Assembly (NCBI GenBank): GCA_965217585.1
Contig: OZ244561.1
Coordinates: 1,056,001 to 1,120,000, forward strand
Length of the DNA stretch: 64,000 nucleotides
DNA from: Candidatus Latescibacterota bacterium
GTDB taxonomy: Bacteria > Latescibacterota > UBA2968 > UBA8231
Direction: 5' to 3'
Each line of letters opens with the position of its first letter. Positions within the stretch are counted from its first letter, which is position 1. The notes below the pieces were generated by a model. That model was given only the letters and a program-made list of their open reading frames with translations. It had not been told where the DNA came from and searched no databases. Shown piece after piece: positions 10,837 to 64,000 of the stretch. The position numbers and the translations under genes are program-made.

Positions 10837-12538
10837 GCCCGACGTCCAAGTGCCCATGCGCGACGGCGTGCGCATGGCGGCGCACGTGTTTCGCCCCGAC
10901 GCCGATGGCCGGTTCCCCGGAATCCTGCTGCGCACGCCGTACGACCGCCCAAAGTCTGGATTCGAGCGCTACGTGCGCGCTGGGTACGCCGTGGTCACCA
11001 TGGACTCGCGCGGCCGCTACGGCTCCGAGGGCGACTGGGTGCCGTTCACCGTGGAGCACACCGGCGACGCTGAGGACGGCTACGACTCCGTGGAGTGGCT
11101 GGCGGCGCAGCCCTGGTGCGACGGTAGCGTCGGCACCCTCGGAGCCTCGTACAACGCCTATATGCAGTGGCAGCTAGCCAAGCTGCGGCCCCCACACCTA
11201 GTGGCCATGTGCGCGTACACCATCCCGCTGGAGTTGACGGAAGTCGACTGGCCGGGCGGGTTCCGGCCGGGGCGGCGCATCAAGTGGTGGCTTACCTCCA
11301 TGGCGCCGGACCTGCGCCGCCGGCATGGACTGACGCCGCCACACACGCCGGAGCAAGCGCGGCAGGAGTGGGACGCGGTCGCCGGCGAGGGCCACTGGAT
11401 CGGCTACCTGCCGTGGCTCGACTTCCCCCGCCAGTTGCCGCCTGGGCTGGCGGAGTACGCGAAGGACTGGCTTGAGCACCCGAACCGGCGCGCCTGGAAG
11501 TTCGACGAGGTACACAAGGAAGTAGCCGTGCCGAACCTCGACTTCAGCGGCTGGTACGACCACTGCAACGGCTCGATGCAGCATCTTCAACTCATGCAGC
11601 ACCACGGTCGCACCGAGCGAGCGCGGTCGCAGACGAAGCTGGTCGCCGGCCCGTGGAATCACCCGAGCCTTGGCAGCCGCACGGTGGCCGGATTCGACTT
11701 TGGACCACAGGCCGCGCTCGACCTGCCGGACCTGATCATCCGCTGGTTCGACCACTGGCTCAAGGGGATCGACAACGGCGTCAACCGCGAGCCAGCGGTA
11801 CGCTATTTCGCAATGGCCGGACGACAGGGGCAATGGCGCTCGGCCGACACTTGGCCACCAGCGAACACGACGCCCTGTGAGTACCTGTTGAGCAGCGACG
11901 GCGACGCCAAGTTTGGCGGTTCCGGCCGGCTGTCGATTGACGGCGGGCACACCGACGCCGCAGCCGATCGCTTCGACTACGATCCCCGCAATCCCGTACC
12001 GACCCTGTGGACGCGGGAGTGGTTCACGGGGCCGGCGGACCGCCGCCGTCTAGAAGGACGCGACGACATCCTCTGCTATCGCTCGGAACCGCTGACTGAC
12101 GCCGTGGAAATCGCTGGCTATCCAGAAGCCGTGCTCTTCGTCAGCTCGTCGGCACCGGACACGGACTTTTTCGCGCGGCTGGTGAATGAGCACCCACCCG
12201 CGGCTGGCGCAGGGGGTGAGATGACGAGTGGACCAGCTCCGGAAATGTGCTACGGCCTAGTGCGCGCCCGCCACCGCAACTCCCTCGACGTTGAAGAGTT
12301 GCTGACGCCCGGGGGCTTGGTGGAACTCCGCATCCGCATGGGGCCGACGGCCTGCCGCTTTGAGCCGGGCCATCGCATCCGCCTAGAGATCACGTCGAGC
12401 GACTTCCCCAACCACGATCGCAATCACAACACAGGCAAAAACGACCTAGCCGACACCGAGCTAGTCGTGGCTACCAATGCCGTGCATCACTCGGCAGCCC
12501 AGCCTTCGCGGCTCGTGCTGCCCGTGTCCGAGGGGTGA
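10808..12538 (+). CDS. CocE/NonD family serine hydrolase (S15)
   Basis: VPMRDGVR, RTPY, DSRGRYGSEG, nucleophile GASY, GWYD, GPWNH and SSDFP motifs. Start moved to ATG 10808. Confidence 0.92.
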   Translation: MSSTLGILTEPDVQVPMRDGVRMAAHVFRPDADGRFPGILLRTPYDRPKSGFERYVRAGYAVVTMDSRGRYGSEGDWVPFTVEHTGDAEDGYDSVEWLAAQPWCDGSVGTLGASYNAYMQWQLAKLRPPHLVAMCAYTIPLELTEVDWPGGFRPGRRIKWWLTSMAPDLRRRHGLTPPHTPEQARQEWDAVAGEGHWIGYLPWLDFPRQLPPGLAEYAKDWLEHPNRRAWKFDEVHKEVAVPNLDFSGWYDHCNGSMQHLQLMQHHGRTERARSQTKLVAGPWNHPSLGSRTVAGFDFGPQAALDLPDLIIRWFDHWLKGIDNGVNREPAVRYFAMAGRQGQWRSADTWPPANTTPCEYLLSSDGDAKFGGSGRLSIDGGHTDAAADRFDYDPRNPVPTLWTREWFTGPADRRRLEGRDDILCYRSEPLTDAVEIAGYPEAVLFVSSSAPDTDFFARLVNEHPPAAGAGGEMTSGPAPEMCYGLVRARHRNSLDVEELLTPGGLVELRIRMGPTACRFEPGHRIRLEITSSDFPNHDRNHNTGKNDLADTELVVATNAVHHSAAQPSRLVLPVSEG

Positions 12539-12545
12539 GCTCGGT

Positions 12546-14681
12546 TCAGAAATTGAACCTATAGCTCAATTTCGTCAGCAGTATCCGCTCTGGCTCTGTG
12601 GTGTCGGCTCGATGCTCGTTATAGGCGATATAGAACCGGCTGTTATTCGCGCCGAACGTATAGCTAAAAAGCAGGTTGAGATCGACGGTGTCACGGTGGA
12701 AGCTGCGCTGAAAAAAGCTGCGGATGAACAGATCCCGATGCAAAAAGTACGTCGTCCGCAGCAACAAGACGCGCTTCACCTCGTCTAATGCGCCGGAGGG
12801 GAAATACTCCCAGACAGATTCCGTACTAGAGTCAACAAAGAATCCCTCCCACAAATCGAACCGCAGCGTCCCGGATACGCGGCGGATGTCGCCGAGGTAT
12901 TCGTCCGCAAAGTCGTACTGATCCCGGAGTTGACCGCTGAGGCGGAGCCGGTACTTGCGTCCATTGCCGGTGTCAAAACCGGCATTGAATGAGTCGCCGT
13001 TGTACTTTTTTTTCTGCCATCGCAATTGCCAATTATAGTGGCCGAACCACGCCCGCGAGTCATCCAGCCGCCGTACGTACAGATCGACGTTGCTCCAGCG
13101 CCATTCCCACCCCTCTTCGTTGGTCCGCCGCTCGGCGACAAGATTCTGCCCCAAATAGATATTTCTAATGCCGAGGAAATCGGGACGCCAACCGTAGCTT
13201 CCATAGAGGCTGAATTCTCGCTCGCCGACGTCGGCGTCGTGCGGGATGAAACCGATTTGATCCACGTTGAACTTAGGCTCGATCCAAGATCCCCGAATCC
13301 CAAATGGGAAGCGATCGGAATTGTACCTAAAGCGACCGCTGTGCATTTTGTTGCGGCGGTCCGTGTCTGCACCAAAACTCATGGCCGAATTGAGGAAGAG
13401 CTTAGCATTGTCGTCCAAGCTCAAGACGAGATCGCTGCCTACCGCCTGTTGCCCTAGCGGACCATTTTTCCCGACGGCCAGGGCACCAATAGAGGAATTG
13501 ACCCCTACATCGCGCTTGAGGCGCAGGACGCCGAAATGCGGAGGGTCGCCGTCCCCATCCGATGGGCGATTCCGCGCTGCGATCAGGCCGACGCTGTTCT
13601 TGCCGATCTTCCCCGTTATTTTAGTGCCGGCATCCGGATCGCTAATGCGACGACTGTAGAAGAGATCCATCGCCGTAAACAGCTTTTGGCCTTCGAGAAA
13701 GAAGGGTCGTTTCTCCTCTAAAGAGAGTTCAAATCTCGTCAGGTTTATCTGGTTTTCGTCGGCTTCTATATGGGCGAAATCCGGATTAAAGGTGGTGTCC
13801 AAGGTGAGATTGGAGGCTATACTGTATTTCAGATCGAGCCCGAAATCGCTGGACCAGCCTTCTGCGGACCGACTCCCCACATTGCCATAGCCTCGGGTTG
13901 CATAAGGCAGTACCTCTAGGTGAAGTCCCGGTTTTATGTCTTCGAGTCCATGCAGGTGGCCGGCCTTGGACACTTTCAGGAGATATCGGTCGTCTCTCGA
14001 TATAAACGCCCAGTTGCTATTCTCCGTATAGGTCCGCTCAATGCGCTGGATGTTTATGCCCCACGTATGCTGATCCAATTCGGGAAATCGCAGCGTCTTG
14101 AATGGTATGGCAATCTCGGCACTCCAGCCTTGGTCGTGGATATGGGTTTCGGACTGCCAAATGCCGTCCCAGCTCTGATCGATTCCACCCCAGCCACCGG
14201 ACCCATCGTTTTCGACGCGAAAATCGTTCTGGACGCCGTAGGCATTTATATAGAACCCATAGGCATTTTGGTGGTCGTGATAGGTATCTAAGACGAGACC
14301 GACGAGGTCTAACGGGGAGAACGTGCCGTCCCGCTGCATGATGCGCCCCTTTATATTCCCAGGCTCCGCATCAATCATATTGAGGCCGATGTACAGGTAA
14401 TCGGCGTCGTAGAGTACGTGTATAAAGGTTTGGTTGGTCGCGGCGACGCCCTCTTCGGGTTCGATCAATATGAATCCCGTCGCCGGTGTAGCCCGCTTCC
14501 AGTCCTCATCGTCTAGGACGCCGTCGATGGTTGGCCGGAGGTGCGTTCTGAAGGCCCAAACGTCCTTTTCGCTGGGCTTTTCGTGGGCCGGTGCAGACGG
14601 TGCAACAACGAGCGCAGCCCCTATCATCCAGAGTAGCCATAGGTGTGTACGGAGGCACCTGGTCGGGTATGCCGTGCTCAT
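12546..14681 (-). CDS. CBM9-like / DUF5916 secreted outer-membrane protein
   Basis: Signal peptide, PTIDGVLDD..W, GWSAEIAIPF..LRF, NPDFAHIEAD, EKRPFFLEG and FYSRRI motifs. C-terminal KLSYRFNF barrel-type end. Confidence 0.88.
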   Translation of the reverse strand: MSTAYPTRCLRTHLWLLWMIGAALVVAPSAPAHEKPSEKDVWAFRTHLRPTIDGVLDDEDWKRATPATGFILIEPEEGVAATNQTFIHVLYDADYLYIGLNMIDAEPGNIKGRIMQRDGTFSPLDLVGLVLDTYHDHQNAYGFYINAYGVQNDFRVENDGSGGWGGIDQSWDGIWQSETHIHDQGWSAEIAIPFKTLRFPELDQHTWGINIQRIERTYTENSNWAFISRDDRYLLKVSKAGHLHGLEDIKPGLHLEVLPYATRGYGNVGSRSAEGWSSDFGLDLKYSIASNLTLDTTFNPDFAHIEADENQINLTRFELSLEEKRPFFLEGQKLFTAMDLFYSRRISDPDAGTKITGKIGKNSVGLIAARNRPSDGDGDPPHFGVLRLKRDVGVNSSIGALAVGKNGPLGQQAVGSDLVLSLDDNAKLFLNSAMSFGADTDRRNKMHSGRFRYNSDRFPFGIRGSWIEPKFNVDQIGFIPHDADVGEREFSLYGSYGWRPDFLGIRNIYLGQNLVAERRTNEEGWEWRWSNVDLYVRRLDDSRAWFGHYNWQLRWQKKKYNGDSFNAGFDTGNGRKYRLRLSGQLRDQYDFADEYLGDIRRVSGTLRFDLWEGFFVDSSTESVWEYFPSGALDEVKRVLLLRTTYFLHRDLFIRSFFQRSFHRDTVDLNLLFSYTFGANNSRFYIAYNEHRADTTEPERILLTKLSYRFNF

Positions 14682-52759: not shown

Positions 52760-52993
52760 ATGACTAATGCGACCAAACGAATCACCATCGACTTTGATCC
52801 TGCGATTCACCGTGCCCTTCAGCGACAGGCCGCTGAAGCGAACCGGTCCATCTCCGCCTTGGTCAATGATGCCGTGAGGCGCACCCTAACCGAGGATGTC
52901 GAGGATTTGAGTGCCTTCGACGAGCGGGACGCCGAACCCAATTTGCCGTTTGAGGATGTCGTCAAAGATCTCAAGCGCAGTGGCAAGCTATAA
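52760..52993 (+). CDS. CopG/ribbon-helix-helix antitoxin
   Basis: KRITIDFDP.IHRAL...AAE..RSISALVNDAVR..L.ED.EDL. Overlaps a RelE-like start. Confidence 0.85.
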   Translation: MTNATKRITIDFDPAIHRALQRQAAEANRSISALVNDAVRRTLTEDVEDLSAFDERDAEPNLPFEDVVKDLKRSGKL

Positions 52994-53040
52994 AATTCAG
53001 ATCAAGCCCTCTGCCGTCCGGGAAATCGAGGCGATTCCTC
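52980..53040 (+). pseudogene. relE: Truncated RelE/ParE toxin (first ~20 codons only)
   Basis: GTG GCA AGC TAT... = MASYKIQIKPSAVREIEAIP, a typical RelE N-terminus. The homology stops abruptly. Confidence 0.8.
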
Positions 53041-53060
53041 TTTCTTTTCTTAGTTACGTC

Positions 53061-53264
53061 CTGATGTTACGCAGCCTCTGTCTTCTTAGGGCAGCCTCTT
53101 CCGCCCGCTTGGTGCCTGTGCGGTCCCGGTGTCATGCCTGCGAAAGCAGGCATCCAGAAAGGCCGTTTGAGGCTAAGGCGCTGGGCTGGATTCCCGCTTT
53201 CGCGGGAATGACGACAGGCAGGGCAGCAAGGCGGCAGACACTACATAAGTCTTCGTAACGTCAG
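53061..53264. mobile_element. MITE-like 204-bp element with terminal inverted repeats and 7-bp target-site duplication
   Basis: Left end CTGATGTTACGCAGCCT versus reverse-complemented right end CTGACGTTACGAAGACT (14/17). TTACGTC at 53054-53060 and 53265-53271. Confidence 0.75.
53131..53212. repeat. Double-hairpin palindromic repeat (GTCAT..CGAAAGC..ATCCA / TGGATTCCCGCTTTCGCGGGAATGAC; RPE/REP-like)
   Basis: GTCATGCCTGCGAAAGCAGGCATCCA ... TGGATTCCCGCTTTCGCGGGAATGAC. Confidence 0.85.
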
Positions 53265-53310
53265 TTACGTCTTTAACTCACCCTCTGTCGAGCGCTCCGG
53301 GAGAAACCAC

Positions 53311-54144
53311 ATGATCCGTCTCAACCAACAGCAACTCAACTTTTTCGACACCTTCGGCTACCTCGGGCTGCCGGGGTTGATGGCCGACTGCATCGACGAA
53401 ATCATCGACGCCTTTGAGCAGGTCTGGGCCGAGCGCGGCGGAGGCCACGACGGCCAACCGCACGACGACCAACGACGTTCCTGCATCGTGCCTTTCATCG
53501 ATCAACACGAGCGCCTGTGCGCCCTGCTCGACGATCCGCGCATCGAGGGATTACTCGCCAGTCTGCTCGGCGACAACTTCAACTACAGCAGTTCCGACGG
53601 CAACTACTACGCCGGCGACACGCAGTGGCACTCCGACGGCTACCAGAAGGAAGTGCGCCACGTCAAGATCGCCTTCTACCTCGACCACTTAACCCGCGAC
53701 ACCGGCTGCCTGCGCGTGATCCCAGGCAGCCACCGGCTCCGCGATCAGTACGCCGATGCACTCGAAGCAAACGCGCGCCAATCGCAGGAGCAGTGGGGCA
53801 TCTCCGGCGACCAGGTACCCGCCGTCGCGCTGGAGATCGTCCCAGGAGACGTCGTCGTCTTCCAACACAACCTCAAACACGCGGCCTTCGGGGGCGGTGG
53901 CCGCCGCCGCATGTTCACCATCAACTGCATGGTGCGCGTGCCCGACGATCAGCTCGACACCGTCAAACAAGACATCGCCGGGCTGGCCCGCTTCTGGGCG
54001 GAGCGCGCGTACGGCGAGAAGATGATCGCCACGGCGAGTGCCCGTCGCATGGTGCATCTCAAGCAACGCATGGCCAATGACGGCCACCTCAAAGAACTAG
54101 CGGCGAAGGCGCGGGCCGAGATGGCCGAGCCGTCGCGGGGATAG
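53311..54144 (+). CDS. Phytanoyl-CoA dioxygenase (PhyH) family Fe/2OG enzyme
   Basis: F.TFGYL, WHSDG (HxD), GCLRVIPGSH, PGDVVVF...L.H and RR motifs. Confidence 0.92.
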   Translation: MIRLNQQQLNFFDTFGYLGLPGLMADCIDEIIDAFEQVWAERGGGHDGQPHDDQRRSCIVPFIDQHERLCALLDDPRIEGLLASLLGDNFNYSSSDGNYYAGDTQWHSDGYQKEVRHVKIAFYLDHLTRDTGCLRVIPGSHRLRDQYADALEANARQSQEQWGISGDQVPAVALEIVPGDVVVFQHNLKHAAFGGGGRRRMFTINCMVRVPDDQLDTVKQDIAGLARFWAERAYGEKMIATASARRMVHLKQRMANDGHLKELAAKARAEMAEPSRG

Positions 54145-55078
54145 GGCAATCAGGAGCGACCACTACGAATTCAAAATGGGGATCTACCTCGGAGAGCTGC
54201 AGCAGCCATTCGAGCAATCGCTGGCCACGGCGCGCGACCTCGGCGCGCACTACATCTGGTGCGGCATCCACTCCAACAATCGCAGCTTCTACGAGCTTTC
54301 CGACGCCGAGATAGACCAAGCCGCCGAGCAAGTTGCCGCGCACGGTCTCGAGTTTTTCCTGCTCGACGGCGCTGGGTTGTTCAAGACAGTACACCTCGCC
54401 GAGCTTGAGCCGGGCAAGATGCTCGAACACGCCCAATTCAAGGATCATTTCACCAAGCTGGAACGGTCGATGGAGGTTTCAGCCCGCTTGGGAATCGCCG
54501 CGGTCGGCTGCAGCAGCTTCGCTTGGCCGGCCGAGTATACCGGCGGCAAGCCCACTTGGCCGATGCGCTGGGCAACGCGCGGCGGCATCATCTCCGACGG
54601 CGACATGGCAAAGCTCGTCGAAGCATTCTCCATGTTCGCCGATATCGCCGAAAAATACGACGTCGATATCGCCTTCCTGATGATGCAGTGGAATTACGGC
54701 AACACCAGTCGCAACTTCCGCCGCATCGTCGAAGCAGTCGGCTCGCGGCGGTTCAAGGTGCTCTGGTGTCCGGCGGACAACTACAACTGTGGCGAAGTTG
54801 ACAATGCCACCGCCGGATTCGAAAACCTCCGCCCCTACCTGCACGGCGTCCACGCCAAGGACCTGCGCACCATAAACGGCTCAAAGCTCGAATTTGAGTA
54901 CACGCCCATCGGCGAGGGCGACGTCGATTACCCGACGATCCTGCGCAACCTGCGCGACAACCGCTGCGACGTCGTCCTGTCGATTGCCACCCACTTCCTA
55001 CCGGCAAGCGGCTCGCGGCTCGAAGCCATGCAGACGAACTACACCAACATCCGCAGGCTGATTGGCGAGTTGGCGTAG
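54061..55078 (+). repeat. Long direct repeat copy A (PhyH 3' end + TIM-barrel gene)
   Basis: Collinear with 60178-61195. The offset is 6117 bp at both ends. Confidence 0.95.
54176..55078 (+). CDS. Xylose isomerase-like/AP endonuclease 2 TIM-barrel protein (copy 1; upstream ATG mutated to AGG)
   Basis: H.KD and P.GEG.VDY motifs. 16 aa differences in 300 versus copy 2 by hand count. Confidence 0.85.
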   Translation: MGIYLGELQQPFEQSLATARDLGAHYIWCGIHSNNRSFYELSDAEIDQAAEQVAAHGLEFFLLDGAGLFKTVHLAELEPGKMLEHAQFKDHFTKLERSMEVSARLGIAAVGCSSFAWPAEYTGGKPTWPMRWATRGGIISDGDMAKLVEAFSMFADIAEKYDVDIAFLMMQWNYGNTSRNFRRIVEAVGSRRFKVLWCPADNYNCGEVDNATAGFENLRPYLHGVHAKDLRTINGSKLEFEYTPIGEGDVDYPTILRNLRDNRCDVVLSIATHFLPASGSRLEAMQTNYTNIRRLIGELA

Positions 55079-55212
55079 CTTTTATCGCTTCACTTGATAG
55101 GAATGGATTTGACAATACTGTGGAAAGTTTATTTTTTGCAAACGGTTGCTTGACCGCTTATATTATAGCTGCAAGGCAACTCGAAGCGGGTGCCCGCCGA
55201 GCTGTCCCAGAC

Positions 55213-55247
55213 GCGTCCGTGCGGACGGGTTCGAGTACTAGCGTCCC
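55213..55247 (+). repeat. Short imperfect direct repeat upstream of the WD40 gene
   Basis: GCGT-CCGTGCGGACGGGTTCGAGTACTAGCGTCCC matches 60120-60155 at 28/36. Confidence 0.7.
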
Positions 55248-55307
55248 AAGCCCGACAGTGCGGAACAGCCGCGCAACAGTCAATCTCCGGCCAAGGAAGG
55301 ATTTCAG

Positions 55308-58300
55308 ATGAAAAAGTCTCGATTGTTCAACCTCATCCTCTTGTTAGTCGCGCTCCTGTTCGTGCAGGACAGCCACGCCCAGACCATCCTCGAAGGGCAT
55401 AGACGAGATGTCACTTCCGTAGCGTTTTCACCCGATGGCACAACCCTCGCTTCCGGGTCAAAGGACAACACGGTCAAGCTGTGGGATGTAGAAACCAGAG
55501 AAATTATCGCCACCCTTGAGGGGCATACGAGTGATGTGACTTCCGTGGCGTTTTCTCCCGATGGGACACTGCTTGCTTCTGGATCAGAGGATGAAACAAT
55601 CAAGCTGTGGGACGTGGCGACGAAAACAAATATTGCCACCCTCGAAGGGCATAGACGAGATGTCACTTCCGTAGCGTTTTCACCCGATGGCACAACCCTC
55701 GCTTCCGCATCGTGGGATGACACAATCAAGCTGTGGGATGTAGAAACCAGAGAAATTATCGCTACCCTTGAGGGGCATACGAGGGATGTGACTTCCGTGG
55801 CGTTTTCTCCCGATGGGACACTGCTTGCTTCCGGGTCAGAGGACAACACGGTCAAGCTGTGGGATGTGGCGACGCATACAAATATTGCCACCCTTGAAGG
55901 GCATACGAGTTATGTGACTTCTGTGGCATTTTCACACGACGGAACCACCCTCGCTTCCGGGTCAAAGGACAACACGGTCAAGCTGTGGGATGTGGCGACG
56001 AAAACAAATACCGCCACTCTTGCTGGACATACGGGTGACGTCCATTCCGTAGCGTTTTCACCCGATGGGACCACCCTCGCTTCCGCAGGGGGAACGTTTG
56101 ATGAAAAGGTCAAGCTGTGGGATGTGGCTGGACAATATTCTTTCGCCACCTTCGAGCATACGGGTGACGTCCATTCCGTGACATTTTCACCCGACGGGAC
56201 CCTGCTCGCTTCCGGGTCAGAGGACAAGACGGTCAAGCTGTGGGATGTCTCAGAATGGCTGGTTCCCCGTCCTTTTAGGTTAGTGATAATCTCTGGTGAT
56301 GACCAGCAAGGTACGCCCGGTGCTGCATTGCCCCACCCTCTAATCGTTGAAGTCAGAGACAAGGACAATAATCCCCTACCAGATGTACAGGTCACCTTTA
56401 CGGTCACTGCTGGTGCAGGAGAGCTCAGCGGGCAGTTCGCGGTTGAGCACGTAACGACCGATGCCAATGGCCGCGCACAACGGACGCTTACGCTTGGTCC
56501 CGGTCCGGGAACACACACCTTTGTTGGGGTATCTGTCCTTGGGGGTGCGTTGCTGGTGACGTTTAATGCGGTAGGCACTGGAACGCCTGATGTCCTGTTT
56601 TTGCGGGACGGCCTTACCGAGGACACCCTTGAAGGGCATACGAGTGATGTGACTTCAGTGGCGTTTTCGCCCTATGGGACACTGCTCGCTTCCGGGTCAG
56701 ATTATGGCACAGTTGTGCTGTGGGACGTGGCGACGAGCACAAACACGGCCACATTTGAAGATAATGTTTATGGCGTCTATTCTATAGCATTTTCACCCAA
56801 TGGTACAACCCTCGCTACCGCGTCTTTATATCGCATCAAGCTGTGGGACGTGGCGACGGGCACAAATATCGCCATCCTTGCAGGAAAATTTTTCGAATCT
56901 GTGGCGTTCTCACCCGATGGGAAGACTCTTGCTTCCGCATCTTGGGATGGGCTCAAGCTGTGGGATGTGGCGACGCGTAAGAGTACCGCCATACTTGAAG
57001 AGACGCCTTATGGTCGTGTCTATTCTATGGCGTTTTCACCCGATGGCACACTCGCCACCGCGTCAGATGAAGGCACGATCAAGCTATGGGACATAGCGAC
57101 TGGAAATTCCGCCACCCTTAAAGGGCATACGGATAATGTCTATTCTGTGGCGTTTTCATCCGATGGCACGCTGCTTGCCTCTGGATCAGAGGATGGCACG
57201 GTCAAGCTGTGGGATGTGGTGAGGCGTACAGATACCGCCACCCTTAAAGGGCATACGCTGGCAGTCACTTCTGTGGCATTTTCACCCAATAGCGCAACCA
57301 TCATATCCGGGTCAGAGGATGGCACGGTCAAGCTGTGGGATGTGGCGACGGGCACAAATACCGCCATACTTGATGGGCATACAGATGAGGTTCTTTCGGT
57401 GGCATTCTCGCCCCATGGGACGATTGTCGCGTCTGGATCAAAGGATAATACGGTCAAACTGTGGGATGTGGCTGAGGCGGTTCAGCCACAGTCTTTCGGG
57501 TTGGTGAAAATCTCAGGCGATGACCAGCAAGGCATACCTGGTGCCACGTTGCCCAACCCCCTAATCGTTGAAGTGAAAGATCAGTACGGTAATCCCTTAC
57601 CAAGTGCTCAAGTCACTTTTACGGTCACCGCCGGTGAGGGGAAGCTCAGTGGTCAGTTCACAGTTGAGCAGGCAACAACCGATGCCAATGGCCGCGCAGA
57701 ACGGACGCTTACGCTTGGTCCCGGTCCGGGAACATACACTCTTGTTAGGGTATCTGATGGGCGCAGGCTGGTGATATTTACTGTTGGGACGCCTGACGTG
57801 CCACGTAGCAGGGACGGTGATTATTGGACATGGCATTTACCCGATGGCGTAATCGCACGTTTGGGTAAAGGTTTGATATTGGATATAGCGTACTCAGCCG
57901 ATGGTACGCGGTTGGCAGTGGGCAGTGGCATCGGTGTTTGGGTCTATAATGCACTCACCGGCGACGAGATCGACTTCCTAACGGAGCATACATCTGCAGT
58001 CCGCAGCGTCGCGTTCAACCCAGATGGCAGCACACTCGCCAGTGGCGAGTGGGACGGTACAATCCATCTGTGGGATGCGGACACAGGACAGCACTTGAAA
58101 ACGATCACAGGGCATACATCTGCAGTCCGCAGCGTCGCGTTCAACCCAGATGGTAGCACACTCGCTAGTGGCAGTCAGGGCGGTACAATCCGTCTGTGGG
58201 ATGCGGACACAGGACAGCACTTGAGAGGGCTCACTACGCAGGATGTATTTGGAAATGCGGAGATCGTCAATAGTATCGCGTTCAGGCCGGATGGCAGCAC

Positions 58301-60119
58301 ACTCGCTAGCGCTGGAAAATCTTTCCTTAGTAGTGTAATCCATCTGTGGGATGCGGACACAGGACGGCATTTGGAAACGATTACAGCGCCTGGGGCAGGC
58401 GGATTCTGGAGTGTCGCATTCAGCCCGGAGGGTAGCAGGCTCGTCAGTCCCAGTCAGGTTCTCCCGGGATTTCGCCGAGGCGACCTCTATCTGTGGGATG
58501 CGGATACAGGACGGCGTTTGGAAAGGTTGGAGCATAGGGATAATTTTTCTGAGCCTACCTATTATTATAGCGCCGCGTTCAGCCCGGAGGGCAACACACT
58601 CGTCAGTGGAGGCGGAAAGTTTTTTGGAGGAGGTAATATTGATCTGTGGGATGCGGACACATGGCAGCACCAGCAGAGGCTCTCAGGACATTCGTGGCCT
58701 GTGCGGAGTGTCGCGTTCAGCCCGGAGGGGAAGAGGTTCGCCAGTGGAGGTGGGGAGGAACTCCTTCTGTGGGATGCTACGGGACTGCCCTTGAACACGG
58801 TCCTTGGGCATAACTGGTTGGGTCGAAGCGTCGCACTTAGCGCGGATGGCACACTCGCCAGTGGCGGTTGGGGCGGCACAATTGATCTGTGGGATGTGGA
58901 TACAGGACAGCCCTTGAAAACGATCACAGGGCATACATCTACAGTCCGCAGCGTCGCGTTCAACCCAGATGGCAGCACACTCGCTAGTGCGGTTGGCCCA
59001 AATCTTCGGCTATGGGATGTGGTCACAGGACAGCATAAAAAGAATCTGATCGAGAATAGATCCTATGGACAAGGCTCCGGCATCGGCATTGGTATTGGTG
59101 GCTTCGGATTCGGTGACACCAGCGGCGGTCTCACTGGTATTAGAGTTGGAGGCATTACCCTCGGTTTTAGTGTCGGCGGTGGTAGTACCTATAGACCTCC
59201 TGATATTTTGTCGGTCGTATTCTCAAGGGATGGCAGTATGCTCGCGGTTGGGGATGAGGCAAATAGAATTAAATTGATAGATGTTGACACGGAACGGGTA
59301 CTGAACACGCTCGAAGGCCATACAGATGATGTCTGGGGCGTCGCATTCAGCCTGGATGGCACGCTGGCTAGTGGGAGCGCAGACGGCACCATTCGTCTGT
59401 GGGATATCACCACCGGACAGTCCCTGAACACGCTCGAAGGCCATATAGATGATGTCTGGGGCGTCGCATTCAGCCTGGATGGCACGCTGGCTAGTGGGAG
59501 CGCAGACGGCACCATTCGTCTGTGGGATGTTATCACTGGACAACTCAAGCAGACGCTTGAAGGGCATACGGATGATGTCCGGAGCGTCGCATTCAGCCCG
59601 GATGGCCACTCGCTCGCCAGTGGAAGTCTGGACCGTACCATTCGTCTGTGGGATGTCTCCACAGGACAGCTCAAGGAGACGCTCGAAGGGCATATGTCTG
59701 AAGTCTGGAGCGTTGCGTTTAGTCGGGATGGCAGCATACTCGCCAGTGGAAGTTTGGACGGCACGATTTTGCTGTGGGACGTGGCCGAATGGACAAATTC
59801 GGGAACTACCGTCGCGGCGAATAAGTTGATCGGCCTGCCGGATGAACTCCAGTTGCAGCAGAACGCGCCCAACCCGTTCAACAGCCAGACGGTCATCTCC
59901 TACTTCCTGCCAAAATCGGGCCCGACGCGCCTAGAAGTGTTTTCAGTGACCGGTCAGCGGGTGGCGGTCTTGCGCCAAGGGCACCAGCAGGCTGGCTACC
60001 ACCAGCTCCACTGGAATGCCCGCGACAGCGCAGGCCGTCCCCTAGCCAGCGGCATTTACCTGTACAGGCTGGTGACAGACGAGGGTATCTTGACGCGCAA
60101 ACTCACCCTGCTACGTTAA
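55308..60119 (+). CDS. Secreted 1603-aa WD40-repeat protein with two Ig-like (Big_1-like) modules and a C-terminal T9SS-A/FlgD-like domain
   Basis: Signal peptide, many GH...V.SVAFSPDG..LASGS.D.T.KLWD repeats, two ISGDDQQG.PG..L..PL.VEV modules, and QNAPNPFN...W..RD..G...ASGIY.Y.L...RKLTLLR. Confidence 0.95.
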   Translation: MKKSRLFNLILLLVALLFVQDSHAQTILEGHRRDVTSVAFSPDGTTLASGSKDNTVKLWDVETREIIATLEGHTSDVTSVAFSPDGTLLASGSEDETIKLWDVATKTNIATLEGHRRDVTSVAFSPDGTTLASASWDDTIKLWDVETREIIATLEGHTRDVTSVAFSPDGTLLASGSEDNTVKLWDVATHTNIATLEGHTSYVTSVAFSHDGTTLASGSKDNTVKLWDVATKTNTATLAGHTGDVHSVAFSPDGTTLASAGGTFDEKVKLWDVAGQYSFATFEHTGDVHSVTFSPDGTLLASGSEDKTVKLWDVSEWLVPRPFRLVIISGDDQQGTPGAALPHPLIVEVRDKDNNPLPDVQVTFTVTAGAGELSGQFAVEHVTTDANGRAQRTLTLGPGPGTHTFVGVSVLGGALLVTFNAVGTGTPDVLFLRDGLTEDTLEGHTSDVTSVAFSPYGTLLASGSDYGTVVLWDVATSTNTATFEDNVYGVYSIAFSPNGTTLATASLYRIKLWDVATGTNIAILAGKFFESVAFSPDGKTLASASWDGLKLWDVATRKSTAILEETPYGRVYSMAFSPDGTLATASDEGTIKLWDIATGNSATLKGHTDNVYSVAFSSDGTLLASGSEDGTVKLWDVVRRTDTATLKGHTLAVTSVAFSPNSATIISGSEDGTVKLWDVATGTNTAILDGHTDEVLSVAFSPHGTIVASGSKDNTVKLWDVAEAVQPQSFGLVKISGDDQQGIPGATLPNPLIVEVKDQYGNPLPSAQVTFTVTAGEGKLSGQFTVEQATTDANGRAERTLTLGPGPGTYTLVRVSDGRRLVIFTVGTPDVPRSRDGDYWTWHLPDGVIARLGKGLILDIAYSADGTRLAVGSGIGVWVYNALTGDEIDFLTEHTSAVRSVAFNPDGSTLASGEWDGTIHLWDADTGQHLKTITGHTSAVRSVAFNPDGSTLASGSQGGTIRLWDADTGQHLRGLTTQDVFGNAEIVNSIAFRPDGSTLASAGKSFLSSVIHLWDADTGRHLETITAPGAGGFWSVAFSPEGSRLVSPSQVLPGFRRGDLYLWDADTGRRLERLEHRDNFSEPTYYYSAAFSPEGNTLVSGGGKFFGGGNIDLWDADTWQHQQRLSGHSWPVRSVAFSPEGKRFASGGGEELLLWDATGLPLNTVLGHNWLGRSVALSADGTLASGGWGGTIDLWDVDTGQPLKTITGHTSTVRSVAFNPDGSTLASAVGPNLRLWDVVTGQHKKNLIENRSYGQGSGIGIGIGGFGFGDTSGGLTGIRVGGITLGFSVGGGSTYRPPDILSVVFSRDGSMLAVGDEANRIKLIDVDTERVLNTLEGHTDDVWGVAFSLDGTLASGSADGTIRLWDITTGQSLNTLEGHIDDVWGVAFSLDGTLASGSADGTIRLWDVITGQLKQTLEGHTDDVRSVAFSPDGHSLASGSLDRTIRLWDVSTGQLKETLEGHMSEVWSVAFSRDGSILASGSLDGTILLWDVAEWTNSGTTVAANKLIGLPDELQLQQNAPNPFNSQTVISYFLPKSGPTRLEVFSVTGQRVAVLRQGHQQAGYHQLHWNARDSAGRPLASGIYLYRLVTDEGILTRKLTLLR

Positions 60120-60155
60120 GCGTACCGTGCGCCAAGGTTCAAGTGCTAGCGGCCC
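60120..60155 (+). repeat. Short imperfect direct repeat immediately after the WD40 stop codon
   Basis: GCGTACCGTGCGCCAAGGTTCAAGTGCTAGCGGCCC, partner of 55213-55247. Confidence 0.7.
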
Positions 60156-60177
60156 GATATAGGCTCGAAAGTACATG

Positions 60178-60261
60178 GAACAGCGCATGGCCAACGACGG
60201 CCACCTCAAAAAACTAGCGGCAAAGGCGCGGGCCGAGATGCCCGAGCCGTCGCGGGGATAG
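60178..60261 (+). pseudogene. Duplicated 3' fragment of the PhyH gene
   Basis: EQRMANDGHLKKLAAKARAEMPEPSRG* versus KQRMANDGHLKELAAKARAEMAEPSRG*. Confidence 0.92.
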
Positions 60262-60268
60262 GGAAATC

Positions 60269-61195
60269 ATGAGCGACCACTACGAATTCAAGATGGGGAT
60301 CTACCTCGGAGAGCTGCAGCAGCCATTCGAGCAATCGCTGGCCACAGCGCGCGACCTCGGCGCGCACTACATCTGGTGCGGCACCCACTCCGACAATCGC
60401 AGCTTCTACGAGCTTTCCGACGGCGAGATAGACCAAGCCGCCGCGCAGGTCGCTGCACACGGTCTCGAGTTTTTCCTGCTCGACGGCGCGGGGTTGTTCA
60501 AGACAGTGCATCTCGCCGAGCTTGAGCCGGGCAAAATGCTCAAACACGCCCAGTTCAAGGATCATTTCACCAAGCTGGAACGGTCGATGGAGGTTTCGGC
60601 CCGCTTGGGGATCGGCGTGGTCGGCTGCAGCAGCTTCGCCTGGCCGGCCGAGTACACCGGCAGCAAGCCAACCTGGCCGATGCGCTGGGCGACCCGTGGC
60701 GGCATCATCTCCGACGGCGACATGGAAAAGCTCGTCGAGGCGTTCTCCATGTTCGCCGACCTCGCTGAGAAATACGATGTCGATATCGCCTTCCTGATGA
60801 TGCAGTGGAACTACGGCAACACCAGCCGCAACTTCCGCCGCATCGTCGAAGCCGTAGGCTCGCGGCGCTTCAAGGTGCTCTGGTGTCCAGCGGACAACTA
60901 CAACTGCGGCGAAATCGACAACGCCACCGCCGGCTTCGAAAACCTGCGCCCCTACCTGCACGGCGTCCACGCCAAGGACCTGCGCACCCTAAACGGCGCA
61001 AAGCTCGAATTCGAGTACGCGCCCATCGGCGAGGGCCACGTCGATTACCCGACGATCCTGCGCAACCTGCGCGACAACCGCTGTGACGTCGTCCTGTCGA
61101 TCGCCACCCACTTCCTGCCGGCCAGCGGCTCACGGCTCGAAGCCATGCAGACGAACTACGCTAATATCCGCAGGCTGATCGGCGAGTTGGCGTAG
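60269..61195 (+). CDS. Xylose isomerase-like/AP endonuclease 2 TIM-barrel protein (copy 2, intact start)
   Basis: MSDHYEFKMGIYLGE...; about 95% identical to copy 1. Confidence 0.88.
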   Translation: MSDHYEFKMGIYLGELQQPFEQSLATARDLGAHYIWCGTHSDNRSFYELSDGEIDQAAAQVAAHGLEFFLLDGAGLFKTVHLAELEPGKMLKHAQFKDHFTKLERSMEVSARLGIGVVGCSSFAWPAEYTGSKPTWPMRWATRGGIISDGDMEKLVEAFSMFADLAEKYDVDIAFLMMQWNYGNTSRNFRRIVEAVGSRRFKVLWCPADNYNCGEIDNATAGFENLRPYLHGVHAKDLRTLNGAKLEFEYAPIGEGHVDYPTILRNLRDNRCDVVLSIATHFLPASGSRLEAMQTNYANIRRLIGELA

Positions 61196-61244
61196 CCTTC
61201 CTATCTCGGCGACTCAAGACACCGAGATATAAGGAGTATGACCT

Positions 61245-63437
61245 GTGAAGTATTTGATCGGCTGTTTCATCGGATTGGTGCTGAGCGTGAGCGTCGGCGC
61301 AGAATCTCTCCTTGAAGGCCGGGTGCGGCTGTCGTCTGGGCAGCCAGCCATTGGCGCACAGGTGCGGCTGTTTGACTTGACCGATCTGCGTCGGTTTGTC
61401 GGCACGACCACGGACGAGACTGGGCGTTTCGCACTGCCGCTGCGAGCACTCTCTACGGCAAGGGGCACGGCTCTGCCGACCGACTTTGCGCTGGGGCAGA
61501 ATTACCCCAATCCGTTCAATCCTTCGACTGTCATTCCCTATCAATTGCCGACGGCTGCTCATGTGCGGCTGGAGGTGTTCAATCTGCTGGGGCAGCGTTT
61601 GGCGACGTTAGTGGATGGGGTGCGGTCGGCAGGGGTGCATATGGTGCAATGGGATGCTACGGATGCAGCGGGGCGAGCCGTGGGCGCAGGGGTGTATATC
61701 TACCGGCTGAGCAGCGATGATCAGACGGAGAGTCGGCGGATGGTGTTGGTGGATGGGCAGGCCGGGATTCCAGCGGCTCAGGGGCCGGTGCGGTCGGCGG
61801 TCGAGGATTTAGTGGCAGCGGATGGCTCGGTCTATGGGCTGACTATCTCGGGCGAAGGATTGGTTGCGTATGTGAACCCGGCTTTTCGGATGGGGATTGA
61901 CGGGGCGGACATTGTGATCGAAGAGCACGGCGGCATCCCACGAATGAAGGTGGCCGCGGGCGGGTTATTAGGGGATGTGAACAACGATGGGCAAGTCGAT
62001 ATCTCGGATGTGCTGTACATACTATTATATATTATGGCAGACTCCTCCATTATTCTTCCCAACAACGGCGACATTTCCCTCGGCGATATAAACAACGATG
62101 GCACGGTCGATTTGGCCGACCTCTTGCTCCTCGTCCGCTACACCGACAATCCGTCCGATCCGACGTTGCCGCTGATCGGCGATGATCATGGCGACGCGCT
62201 CTCTGAGGCGACGGAGGTGCCTTTGGGGAGTTCGACTGTTGGCTCGATATCGGAGGGTGATGTGGATTATTTTCGCCTTGAGATGAGCACTGCGGGCGTC
62301 TTGTCGGCTTCTGTGACGAGCAGCATGGGTGCCTACACCTTCATTTTGGATAGCTCTGGCAACATCTTGGCTAGGGATGGCGATTCCGATGCGGGTTTCA
62401 ATTTCCAAATTCTTGTTCCCGTCAGTTCAGGTACTTACTACATCCATGTAGAGGCGTACAGATCGACGACAGACTATACGCTTGATGTGCGGAGTCTCAG
62501 CAGCGCTAGCAACATCGCAACGAACCTCACCCAGAACGCCAGTGACGACTGGGCTCCTGTTTGGTCTCCCGACGGCCAACGCCTCGCCTTCGCGTCCAAT
62601 CGCGATGGCAACACAGAGGTCTATGTCATGGCCGCCGACGGCACCAACCCCACCAACCTCACACAGAACGCCGACACCGACGGGTGGAATCTCGTTTGGT
62701 CCCCCAACGGCCAACGCCTCGCCTTCACGTCTGAGCGCGACGGCAACACGGAGGTCTATGTGATGGCCGCCGACGGTACCGATCCCACCAACCTGACCCA
62801 AAACGCTGGCGACGACTGGGCTCCTGTATGGTCTCCCGACGGCCAGCGCCTCGCCTTCGCGTCCAATCGCGATGGCAACACAGAGGTCTATGTCATGGCT
62901 GCCGACGGCACCGACCCCACCAACCTCACGCAGAACGTCGGTGACGACTGGGCTCCTGTTTGGTCTCCCGACGGCCAACGCCTCGCCTTCGCGTCCAATC
63001 GCGACGGCAACACAGAGGTCTATGTCATGGCTGCCGACGGTACCGACCCCACCAACCTGACCCAAAACGCTGGCGACGACTGGGCTCCTGTTTGGTCTCC
63101 CGACGGCCAGCGCCTCGCCTTCGCGTCCAATCGCGATGGCAACATAGAGGTCTATGTCATGGCTGCCGACGGCACCGACCCCACTAGCCTCACATACCAC
63201 TTCAGCGGTGAGTGGGCTCCTGTATGGTCTCCGGATGGCCAACGCCTCGCCTTCTTGTCCGATCGCGATGGCAACACGGAGGTCTATGTGATGTCCGCCG
63301 ACGGCAGCAACCCAACCAACCTCACGCAGAACGTCGGTGACGACTGGTCTCCTGTATGGTCTCCGGATGGCCAACGCCTCGCCTTCTTGTCCAATCGCGA
63401 CGGCAACACAGAGGTTTATGTCGTAGACGTCGACTAG
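61245..63437 (+). CDS. Secreted protein: N-proximal T9SS-A/FlgD-like domain, dockerin-like, PPC-like, and seven TolB/PD40 repeats
   Basis: Signal peptide, QNYPNPFNPST...WDATD..G....GVY.YRL, GDVNNDGQVDISD / GDINNDGTVDLAD, DDHGD...DVDYF, and 7x TNLTQN.GDDWAPVWSPDGQRLAFASNRDGNTEVYVM. Confidence 0.92.
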   Translation: MKYLIGCFIGLVLSVSVGAESLLEGRVRLSSGQPAIGAQVRLFDLTDLRRFVGTTTDETGRFALPLRALSTARGTALPTDFALGQNYPNPFNPSTVIPYQLPTAAHVRLEVFNLLGQRLATLVDGVRSAGVHMVQWDATDAAGRAVGAGVYIYRLSSDDQTESRRMVLVDGQAGIPAAQGPVRSAVEDLVAADGSVYGLTISGEGLVAYVNPAFRMGIDGADIVIEEHGGIPRMKVAAGGLLGDVNNDGQVDISDVLYILLYIMADSSIILPNNGDISLGDINNDGTVDLADLLLLVRYTDNPSDPTLPLIGDDHGDALSEATEVPLGSSTVGSISEGDVDYFRLEMSTAGVLSASVTSSMGAYTFILDSSGNILARDGDSDAGFNFQILVPVSSGTYYIHVEAYRSTTDYTLDVRSLSSASNIATNLTQNASDDWAPVWSPDGQRLAFASNRDGNTEVYVMAADGTNPTNLTQNADTDGWNLVWSPNGQRLAFTSERDGNTEVYVMAADGTDPTNLTQNAGDDWAPVWSPDGQRLAFASNRDGNTEVYVMAADGTDPTNLTQNVGDDWAPVWSPDGQRLAFASNRDGNTEVYVMAADGTDPTNLTQNAGDDWAPVWSPDGQRLAFASNRDGNIEVYVMAADGTDPTSLTYHFSGEWAPVWSPDGQRLAFLSDRDGNTEVYVMSADGSNPTNLTQNVGDDWSPVWSPDGQRLAFLSNRDGNTEVYVVDVD
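62520..63434 (+). repeat. Intragenic tandem repeat, 7 units of ~132 bp
   Basis: Near-identical 44-codon units. Unit 2 has one extra codon. Confidence 0.92.
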
Positions 63438-63481
63438 CTCAGTCTTCGGGGGCGAGATACGCTTCGGTGCCCTGAATTGCT

Positions 63482-63711
63482 TCCACGCCAAGGACCTGCG
63501 CACCATAAACGGCCCAAAGCTCGAATTCGAGTACGCGCCAATCGGCGAGGGAGACGTGGACTACCCGACGATCCTGCGCAACCTGCGCGACAACCGCTGC
63601 GACGTCGTCCTGTTGATCGCCACTCACTTTCTACCGGCAAGCGGCTCGCGGCTCGAAGCCATGCAGACGGACTACGCCAACATCCGCAGGCTAATCGACG
63701 AGTTGTCGTAG
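63482..63711 (+). pseudogene. Third, 3'-only fragment of the TIM-barrel gene
   Basis: HAKDLRTINGPKLEFEYAPIGEGDVDYPTILRNLRDNRCDVVLLIATHF...DELS*. Collinear with 60966-61195 and followed by TATCGCTTCACT, as after copy 1. Confidence 0.93.
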
Positions 63712-63840
63712 ATTCTATCGCTTCACTCGAAACGCACTTCCGGGCCGACGGATCGCTTCACTGACAACCTATAAGCGCGTTTGGAGTTCGACCAAGCGAC
63801 GGATGCAATCCGGTGCTTATCGCCGTAGCGAAAAAATTTC

Positions 63841-63949: not shown

Positions 63950-64000
63950 ATGCTTCGTGTTGTCCTAACTTCGTTCACGGCGATTGCCCTTATGGGAATG
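63950..64000 (+). CDS. Start of a probable secreted protein (truncated by the window edge)
   Basis: AAGGAGG RBS, ATG, and signal-like MLRVVLTSFTAIALMGM. Confidence 0.65.
   Translation, partial: MLRVVLTSFTAIALMGM

Follow-up and report, generated by a model that had tools for sequence, protein, structure and literature searches.

How might a conserved two-gene operon have come to be followed by a second copy of one of its genes and by the end of a third, with a large gene for a secreted repeat protein in each interval? This arrangement lies in a 64,000-nt stretch (the window) of the source genome G000, a Candidatus Latescibacterota metagenome-assembled genome (MAG) that consists of a single 7.32-Mb contig. 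The operon comprises PhyH, which encodes a PhyH-family dioxygenase, and TIM, which encodes a xylose-isomerase-like TIM-barrel protein, and we refer to the operon with the copies and inserted (cargo) genes behind it as the array. We read the array as the outcome of insertion with long target duplication, repeated in series in the hypervariable slot that follows PhyH-TIM, and produced most likely by single-crossover integration of circularised fragments that each carried a homology arm; we place the probability of this reading at roughly 0.55. Repeats were mapped by self-BLAST of the window and genes were called with Pfam and NCBIfam; relatives' genomes are numbered G001, G002 and so on. The features on which the argument turns are the following.

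53311–54144, plus strand: gene for the PhyH-family dioxygenase, the only full copy and the left anchor of the operon (PF05721, E 2.7e-17).
54064–55079, plus strand: repeat copy 1, which takes in the final 81 nt of PhyH, the spacer behind it and the complete TIM1 (self-BLAST).
54176–55078, plus strand: TIM1, gene for a xylose-isomerase-like TIM-barrel protein (AP_endonuc_2) of 300 aa (PF01261, E 1.5e-22).
55083–55094, plus strand: tag g behind copy 1, native sequence on the 3′ side of TIM (exact 12-mer).
55308–60119, plus strand: cargo 1, gene for a WD40 repeat protein of 1603 aa (21 stretches matching Pfam WD40).
60120–60180, plus strand: junction J2, the 3′ flank of the WD40 gene joined to PhyH −81/−84 (a novel joint, unique in the genome).
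60181–61196, plus strand: repeat copy 2, comprising a PhyH 3′ fragment (60181–60261), the spacer and an intact TIM2 (self-BLAST, Pfam).
60269–61195, plus strand: TIM2, intact, 308 aa (Pfam).
61245–63437, plus strand: cargo 2, gene for a secreted PD40/TolB-like beta-propeller protein of 730 aa (Pfam, NCBIfam).
63438–63478, plus strand: junction J4, the 3′ flank of the PD40 gene joined to TIM nt ~671–673 (flank common to G001 up to 63478).
63479–63727, plus strand: fragment 3, a third TIM allele represented by its final 233 nt (frame still open), with tag g (self-BLAST).

The repeats consist of PhyH-TIM sequence, are all in direct orientation and have sharp ends. Positions 54064–55079 match 60181–61196 over 1016 bp at 93.2% identity (69 mismatches, no gaps), 54846–55094 match 63479–63727 over 249 bp at 92.0%, and 60963–61195 match 63479–63711 over 233 bp at 91.0%; outside each repeat, identity falls to chance level (4–13 of 30 positions). 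The whole 7.32-Mb genome holds no further copy, so that there are three only. Mismatches between copies 1 and 2 are spread evenly, the longest identical run being 53 nt, and the PhyH piece in copy 2 is 81–84 nt long. The homology of TIM1 and TIM2 ends 1 nt past the stop codon and that of TIM2 and fragment 3 ends at the stop codon, and the homology of TIM1 and fragment 3 extends 16 nt further, into g. The tag itself, TATCGCTTCACT, occurs exactly at 55083–55094 and 63716–63727 and with one mismatch at 63751–63762, 35 nt beyond the tag of fragment 3; it is absent behind copy 2, and the chance expectation is 0.19 matches. Sequence related to g also flanks TIM in G001 and G021. Fragment 3 then runs into a downstream gene encoding a PEGA-domain protein (start at 63950). 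A sequence-only reading of the window had already described this geometry, and self-BLAST returned its coordinates to within 3 nt. Its further observations also held: the exact 12-mers agree with a tag that follows copy 1 and fragment 3 and not copy 2, the intact TIM1 and TIM2 with a target gene restored at each step, and the 95% protein identity and synonymous divergence (dS) of 0.258 with its statement that the copies differ by about 5% in protein and represent no fresh duplication.

What, then, are the three TIM copies? TIM1 is 92–96% identical in amino acid sequence to the orthologues of 16 relatives, each of which has one full TIM, and two full copies were found in G000 only among the 41 genomes searched. 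The dS between TIM1 and TIM2 lies within the range of 0.19–0.31 found between species of the genus. Both genes look functional, judging from their intact reading frames and a dN/dS (ratio of nonsynonymous to synonymous divergence) of 0.09. They differ at the start: the start codon of TIM2 (60269) and of the relatives' genes (ATGAGCGACC...) is replaced in TIM1 by AGG (54152), and TIM1 therefore starts eight codons later, which accounts for its 300 residues as against 308. When the two were compared with 14 other species, no derived site proved to be shared by TIM1 and TIM2 alone, and 47 of their 69 differences were states that occur in those species; in a maximum-likelihood tree, TIM2 is placed with G001, G005, G007 and G019 and TIM1 outside them (support 96/95). 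On these two grounds, the lack of exclusive shared sites and the grouping of TIM2 with other species, we rejected a simple in-situ tandem duplication. Fragment 3 differs by 8–9% from TIM1 and TIM2 and is nearest, among full genes, to those of G001 and G019 (94.0%). It has four substitutions of its own in 229 nt, three of them nonsynonymous, although one of the four lies at the junction and may not be derived from TIM at all; its other differences from TIM1 and TIM2 occur in the TIM genes of other species. With so few changes of its own, fragment 3 must have been part of a working TIM allele until fairly recently.

By these sequence comparisons, the three copies are different alleles from the pool of the genus and not a decaying in-situ duplicate, and the array reads as three alleles of one locus in series: PhyH-TIM-WD40, (PhyH end)-TIM-PD40 and (TIM end)-g-downstream. 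Each unit resembles the single arrangement of another species. First, G003 has TIM followed by a WD40 gene, and the first ~35 nt past the WD40 stop codon at J2 are common to the WD40 gene of G003, with unique sequence after that. Second, G002 has an identical TIM/PD40 joint. Third, G019 has TIM together with the same downstream genes. A more elaborate history would begin with an in-situ tandem duplication, through microhomology or an unequal sister-chromosome event, and continue with cargo turnover and double-crossover replacement of one copy by foreign alleles, so that the copies diverged and were stabilised. The genome is hospitable to such a beginning, since local direct repeats are very common (253 direct pairs of at least 150 bp lie 0.8–40 kb apart, and one size class of local repeats contains 130 direct and only 2 inverted pairs) and several large tandem paralogue arrays are present, and the genus recombines heavily and its alleles are mosaic. 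It would, however, need extra steps: [p-TIM-g-WD40] would have to be duplicated, the second g-WD40 lost, and the TIM/PD40 joint, which is common to G002, created. Moreover, no identical tract remains beside the novel junctions, where the first mismatch is 2 nt from the arm end, and the restriction of two full TIM copies to G000 also speaks against it. We regard this history as unlikely.

We propose instead that the alleles were added one at a time. DNA from a sister lineage of the genus would enter the cell, bringing a part of the operon (the homology arm) joined to the downstream cargo of that lineage; the fragment would be end-joined into a circle, and a single RecA-type crossover in the arm would then insert it (Campbell-type integration). 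The product of each such event would be an intact TIM, a new cargo and a second copy of the arm leading into the former downstream DNA. In the PD40 event, a circle of TIM nt ~671–903, the PD40 gene and 41 nt past its stop codon would cross once with a resident TIM-g-downstream, giving TIM/PD40, J4, the 233-nt TIM end, g and the old downstream DNA. In the WD40 event, a circle of the last 81–84 nt of PhyH, TIM, g, the WD40 gene and 61 nt past its stop codon would integrate into PhyH-TIM, giving PhyH-TIM1-g-WD40-J2-(PhyH end)-TIM2. The two events could have occurred in either order. This two-event model predicts every repeat end, and it predicts the tag behind copies 1 and 3 only. Under it, the homology of TIM1 and TIM2 would end just past the stop codon because the donor flank g meets the resident TIM/PD40 joint there, and divergence would be even up to both arm ends because one copy is the donor's and the other the resident's at every site. 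The integration of circles by single crossover had been put forward in the sequence-only reading; its geometry is thus reproduced in full, and the circular intermediates, the crossover, the donors and the route of DNA entry are what we infer from that fit.

Events of this kind have been produced experimentally. In an Escherichia coli assay of one-ended homology (Amarir-Bouhram et al. 2011, PMC3240628), 109–950-bp duplications were reported in 56 of 60 clones and ascribed to a single crossover of a partly degraded, recircularised molecule; the remaining 4 of 60 were illegitimate-end events, all with deletions, even though the assay had been built to find illegitimate one-ended integration. The same final geometry would also be left by a linear route (homology-facilitated illegitimate recombination, or "sequential displacement"), in which homologous exchange takes place upstream, the far end is joined illegitimately within the resident PhyH/TIM 3′ region, and the old gene end and cargo are displaced downstream. 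This route has been put forward for the orphan arrays at type VI secretion system (T6SS) effector-immunity and Rhs loci (PMC5361080), and the joints at J2 and J4, which are novel and have a possible microhomology of at most 2–3 nt, would suit it. The competence-related genes ComEC and DprA, which it can also call upon, are present in G000; they match in most control genomes as well and so do not discriminate. Yet linear one-ended events, as published, usually delete about as much DNA as they insert, and they formed the minority in the assay just cited (4 of 60 against 56 of 60). In addition, strand exchange would be expected to run across the whole PhyH-TIM homology and not to halt 81 nt before the PhyH stop codon. 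We therefore consider a linear origin improbable.

Restoration of a target by duplication of its 3′ end is typical of site-specific integrative elements, such as e14 and phage 21 at icd, and such elements can accrete in tandem, as do integrative and conjugative elements (ICEs) and cis-mobilizable elements (CIMEs). The array might accordingly hold the remnants of elements that targeted the 3′ end of TIM, with att repeats and a replacement gene end, stacked by tandem accretion, their integrase lost or acting in trans; the nearly coincident starts of two TIM remnants in relatives, within 2 nt of each other, would fit a preferred target. No integrase or transposase domain was found by Pfam scans among the submitted open reading frames (ORFs) of at least 90 aa over window positions 34–84 kb, in agreement with the sequence-only reading, and the other islands inspected likewise have no integrase within or beside them. 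Taken as a whole, the genome gave five matches to tyrosine recombinases (PF00589), the nearest ~113 kb from the array, and none to serine recombinases (PF00239). The arms at this one locus range from 85 to 1016 bp and include a whole functional gene with part of the gene upstream, and about ten different target genes would demand as many specificities. No element is common to the junctions, all five junction sequences being unique in the genome. The sole repeated sequence nearby, unrelated to the junctions, is an element resembling a miniature inverted-repeat transposable element (MITE), which is situated outside the array:

53100–53267, strand not assigned: MITE-like element with two short hairpins, 5′ of PhyH in the left intergenic region.

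This 168-bp stretch has 98–99% identical copies at two other genome sites and partial copies elsewhere, and its 27–29-nt hairpin units occur at ~25 genome sites; a 115-aa ORF that overlaps it (52911–53258) has no Pfam match. Site-specific elements are thus a very unlikely source of the array.

Could the array be an artefact, a strain-chimeric join of alternative alleles in the metagenome? The three units do resemble alleles that occur singly in other species, and no read among the short unitigs spans the array. The sequence-only reading had named such a chimera as a refuting outcome, and the checks did not return it. Against it, the genome is a single 7.32-Mb contig, and three of the five junctions are crossed by unitigs that match without a difference: J1 (55007–55417; runs X9 and X10), J3 (61093–61405; X9) and J5 (63640 onward; X9 and X10). 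Runs X9 and X10 may be the source sample; J1 is also present in a run of another study, with eight differences; in run X13, parts have no cover. J2 and J4 are not among the unitig pieces listed, and a joint between TIM copies does not appear among the unitig joints listed (36 more are beyond that list). Similar joints are found in the independent assemblies G002, G001 and G019. A chimera appears extremely improbable.

The surroundings of TIM in other genomes show what the slot can hold. PhyH-TIM is a conserved operon within a backbone of conserved order, MR_MLE (on the minus strand), PhyH, TIM, c3 (a 247-aa gene) and then more conserved genes. PhyH lies immediately 5′ of TIM in 13 of 14 fetched relatives, the exception being G002, in which a cargo gene lies between. 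Where PhyH adjoins TIM (23 loci), c3 follows TIM directly at 12, after an insert of 1.9–4.9 kb at 3, and is not within 10 kb at 8; in G000 it is 25 kb behind TIM1. The slot behind TIM is hypervariable across the genus. Its occupants include a WD40 gene in G003, PD40 genes in G021, G002 and G001, an LRR-cadherin gene in G001 and others, and in G003 and G010 it has been filled without any duplication. Relatives carry independent scars of the kind seen in G000. In G002, a gene of ~1000 aa with a type IX secretion system (T9SS) tail is bracketed by an 85-bp repeat (90.6%) of the PhyH end and TIM start, in the order T9SS-gene, PhyH fragment, TIM, PD40; its joint at PhyH −64 differs from J2 of G000 at PhyH −81/−84. 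G001 has a 172-bp TIM 3′ remnant 14.5 kb behind TIM, and the DNA between them encodes LRR-cadherin, PD40, WD40-Big_1 and regulator proteins and no recombinase; G019, too, has a TIM 3′ remnant, of ~170 bp. The repeat ends vary (TIM nt 671 as against 732 and 734; PhyH −81/−84 as against −64), with those of G001 and G019 nearly coinciding, and scars of 85, ~170, 233 and 1016 bp at PhyH-TIM imply that arm lengths vary. We also sought a clean empty site for fragment 3 by comparing the spacers behind the PD40 genes of G000 and G002, and abandoned it because the spacers are too diverged. As a separate observation, the G002 island contains an IS110-family transposase gene (DEDD_Tnp_IS110 and Transposase_20; L014 12857–13810) between genes that are adjacent in G000.

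The same scar recurs elsewhere in the G000 genome. At 8 of 12 loci inspected, a full core gene is followed by an insert and then by an orphan 3′ copy of that gene, 151–517 bp long and 89–98% identical to it, and at two more loci whole-gene repeats bracket the insert, the duplications at these other loci ranging overall from 151 to 1033 bp.

Core gene SDR: insert GNAT.
Core gene DMFA2-like: insert type I restriction-modification (R-M).
Core gene for a PLP enzyme: insert DDE transposase.
Core gene Ldh_2: insert two small ORFs.
Core gene 2-Hacid_dh: insert AAA-ATPase/PD-(D/E)XK.
Core gene DUF3604-like: insert TPR-amidohydrolase.
Core gene of 962 aa: insert type I R-M and SIR2.
Core gene, a second PhyH (genome 145,316–150,223; L038): insert Hachiman-like HamA and a 1142-aa protein.
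Epimerase gene pair, 854 bp, 92.6% (genome 4,039,258–4,053,102; L041): around a 12-kb Druantia-like system.
Pair of 270-aa genes, 89.4%: around ABC-transporter genes.

At the Hachiman locus the duplication is 224 bp (95%). G001 has the same insert, most of 30 relatives have an empty site with one copy of the 224-bp segment, and 8 of the 11 differences between the arms are polymorphisms among 14 empty-site relatives. The Druantia-like system comprises DruA and proteins of 962, 360 and 1884 aa; a search of 30 relatives found it in none. Past the distal epimerase gene, part of the native flank is present a second time, so that two alleles of the hotspot stand in tandem; in G013, G002 and G041, epimerase ends of 81–160 bp lie a few kilobases from the full epimerase gene. 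The sequence-only reading had anticipated much of this: relatives do hold different cargo at the same site (WD40, PD40, LRR-cadherin and T9SS-tailed genes), such loci do recur in the genome, and the arrangement is neither fixed across the relatives nor confined to one place. Its view of the array as a device for surface proteins fits the secreted repeat-protein cargo found here and is too narrow for the scar in general, which elsewhere brackets defence systems.

Several observations weigh against single-crossover integration of circles. First, in the short Logan unitigs, our sole read data, we saw no circle, no excised form and no collapsed allele, and a genome search found no Ku, which leaves the closure of the circle without a candidate enzyme. 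Second, our attempt to name a donor or a crossover point from the 69 variable sites of TIM1 and TIM2 failed, as there was neither a single breakpoint nor an identifiable donor; each relative matches as a patchwork, so that a duplicate formed in situ might have diverged later through frequent allelic recombination. Third, the TIM 3′ remnant of G019 (~170 bp, frameshifted by a 2-bp deletion; L016 oriented 12427–12596) lies 9.4 kb downstream of the slot, past backbone genes (c3 ... sigma factor) and before an AhpC gene, a position that simple cassette insertion does not explain. Fourth, the remnants of G001 and G019 start ~2 nt apart (TIM nt 732 and 734) and yet their upstream flanks are unrelated, which is a hint of an old remnant common to both genomes, or of a favoured site, and not of random fragment ends. 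Finally, a mechanical strand-and-side scan for scars was noisy, with 27 loci on the expected side and 14 on the wrong side. The wrong-side loci are mostly internal repeats or of ambiguous strand, and the high G+C content yields spurious reverse-strand ORFs; because the count is not clean, we relied on the Pfam-checked loci.

The cargo genes have features of their own. The WD40 protein has a signal-peptide-like N-terminus and a C-terminal T9SS type A sorting domain (TIGR04183, 40.9 bits against a cut-off of 23), and its C-terminal tail also ends cargo proteins of relatives. The PD40 protein contains, in addition to its propeller, CarboxypepD_reg, FlgD_ig/Por_Secre_tail-like, dockerin and PPC domains, and its T9SS type A sorting domain is internal (residues 87–167) and not C-terminal. 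Its gene is tightly coupled to TIM2 by a 48-nt spacer with a hairpin and a ribosome-binding site. A promoter-like site of the WD40 gene lies at 55135–55164. A T-rich promoter-like motif, "...GCAA(A)CGG...TTGACC/CCCTGxCC...TATATT", precedes cargo genes in the window (55120–55165), in G001 (L013) and in G021 (L024); the downstream PEGA gene has "TTCTTGACATCTTGT" at every position it holds in G000, G002 and G019. The units therefore seem to move with their own promoters. We also observed that the WD40 gene is built of 126-nt units and the PD40 gene of 132-nt units, up to 92% identical to one another (55376–59784 and 62411–63505), and that within the WD40 gene the unitigs of four runs skip sequence at many places, which may reflect variation in repeat number or cross-mapping.

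The 25-kb island of G000 encodes WD40, PD40, PEGA, TPR, dockerin/FlgD_ig-metallopeptidase and collagen-PD40 proteins, together with MotA/ExbB-like, FHA, PP2C and kinase-ankyrin proteins. Its right end is a gene for a 635-aa Ser/Thr-kinase with ankyrin repeats (L027 14105–16012, window-equivalent 78105–80012), which adjoins the FHA and PP2C genes. Elsewhere in the genome, large tandem arrays with multi-kilobase modules of 80–90% identity occur at 6.787–6.854, 2.852–2.873, 3.642–3.660, 7.184–7.194 and 7.299–7.308 Mb. The source organism is a sponge-associated member of Candidatus Latescibacterota, and some of the sequencing runs that share small parts of the stretch bear a sponge metagenome label. 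Domains of eukaryotic-like proteins (ELPs) have been reported in sponge Latescibacterota (PMC12993501), in a paper in which the word "mobile" occurs 0 times.

Little is understood of the ways in which sponge symbionts acquire and exchange eukaryotic-like proteins and defence systems, and most of the islands concerned have no mobility gene. The recurring scar described here, a restored core gene, a cargo and a diverged extra gene end, points to additive integration from sister species by homology only. If this is general, it would offer a simple criterion by which recent acquisitions can be recognised in long-read MAGs, would explain how alternative hotspot alleles can persist together without one replacing the other, and would predict circles with hybrid arms and collapsed alleles. 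More tentatively, and as a suggestion that we ourselves hold to be doubtful, recombinase-free cassettes with homology arms may be a main route of gene gain in sponge-associated Latescibacterota, in that any sister-lineage fragment with a core-gene end and the adjacent cargo could circularise and insert itself by one RecA crossover; heteroallelic arrays, in effect integrons without an integrase, might then stockpile alternative host-interaction proteins and anti-phage systems and be able to shed or re-donate units through their diverged arms.

How does the array compare with known systems? Insertion with long target duplication has been published as a kind of event, so that the present case adds no new principle; its value comes from its scale, serial form and biological setting. 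The kind was reportedly described by Nobusato et al. 2000. Furuta, Abe and Kobayashi (2010, PMC2853133) report target duplications of 46–423 bp on both sides of R-M genes, without mobility genes, in several phyla; the species are mostly naturally competent, and no mechanism is agreed. The G000 locus shares with these cases the lack of a mobility gene and long flanking direct repeats that vary in length, are present once where relatives have the empty site, often overlap the 3′ end of a gene and are imperfect (e.g., 384/412); type I R-M cargo, too, is present at two other G000 loci. Unlike them, G000 has three anchor copies in series around two cargoes, a 1016-bp arm that holds a whole gene predicted to work, arms that differ by 7–9% at sites polymorphic across species, secreted repeat proteins as cargo, and at least ten like loci in one genome. 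Our full-text literature searches listed no description of this array, or of such scars, in Latescibacterota. What is new here is the serial three-copy form, the arm as a complete, apparently working second gene, the interspecies-allele arms, the eukaryotic-like secreted cargo and the number of scars per genome.

Campbell-type insertion-duplication likewise duplicates an arm around foreign DNA, over 109–950 bp in PMC3240628 and over 85–1016 bp here. The published case is a plasmid assay during E. coli conjugation, whereas ours is natural, would involve diverged donors of sister lineages and is known from sequence alone. The orphan arrays of Rhs, contact-dependent inhibition (CDI) and T6SS loci (Kirchberger et al. 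2017, PMC5361080) also have a constant upstream anchor, new modules beside that anchor, old 3′ ends displaced downstream, no integrase and modules from other strains; the displaced piece there is a variable toxin end with its immunity gene, in contrast to the restored metabolic anchor and the complete, independent cargo found here. Integron cassette arrays are similar in forming an ordered, growable series of promoter-proximal cargo units, but the present locus has no intI, attI or attC and no tyrosine recombinase within 113 kb, and its repeats are pieces of host genes. Minimal mobile elements, or replacement-type flexible islands, as in Neisseria, are exchanged through recombination in flanking core genes. 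They resemble the slot behind TIM in lying between conserved genes, in having lineage-specific occupants and in lacking mobility genes; double-crossover replacement, however, leaves no duplicated anchor, whereas an array such as this one would need an additive, one-armed event.

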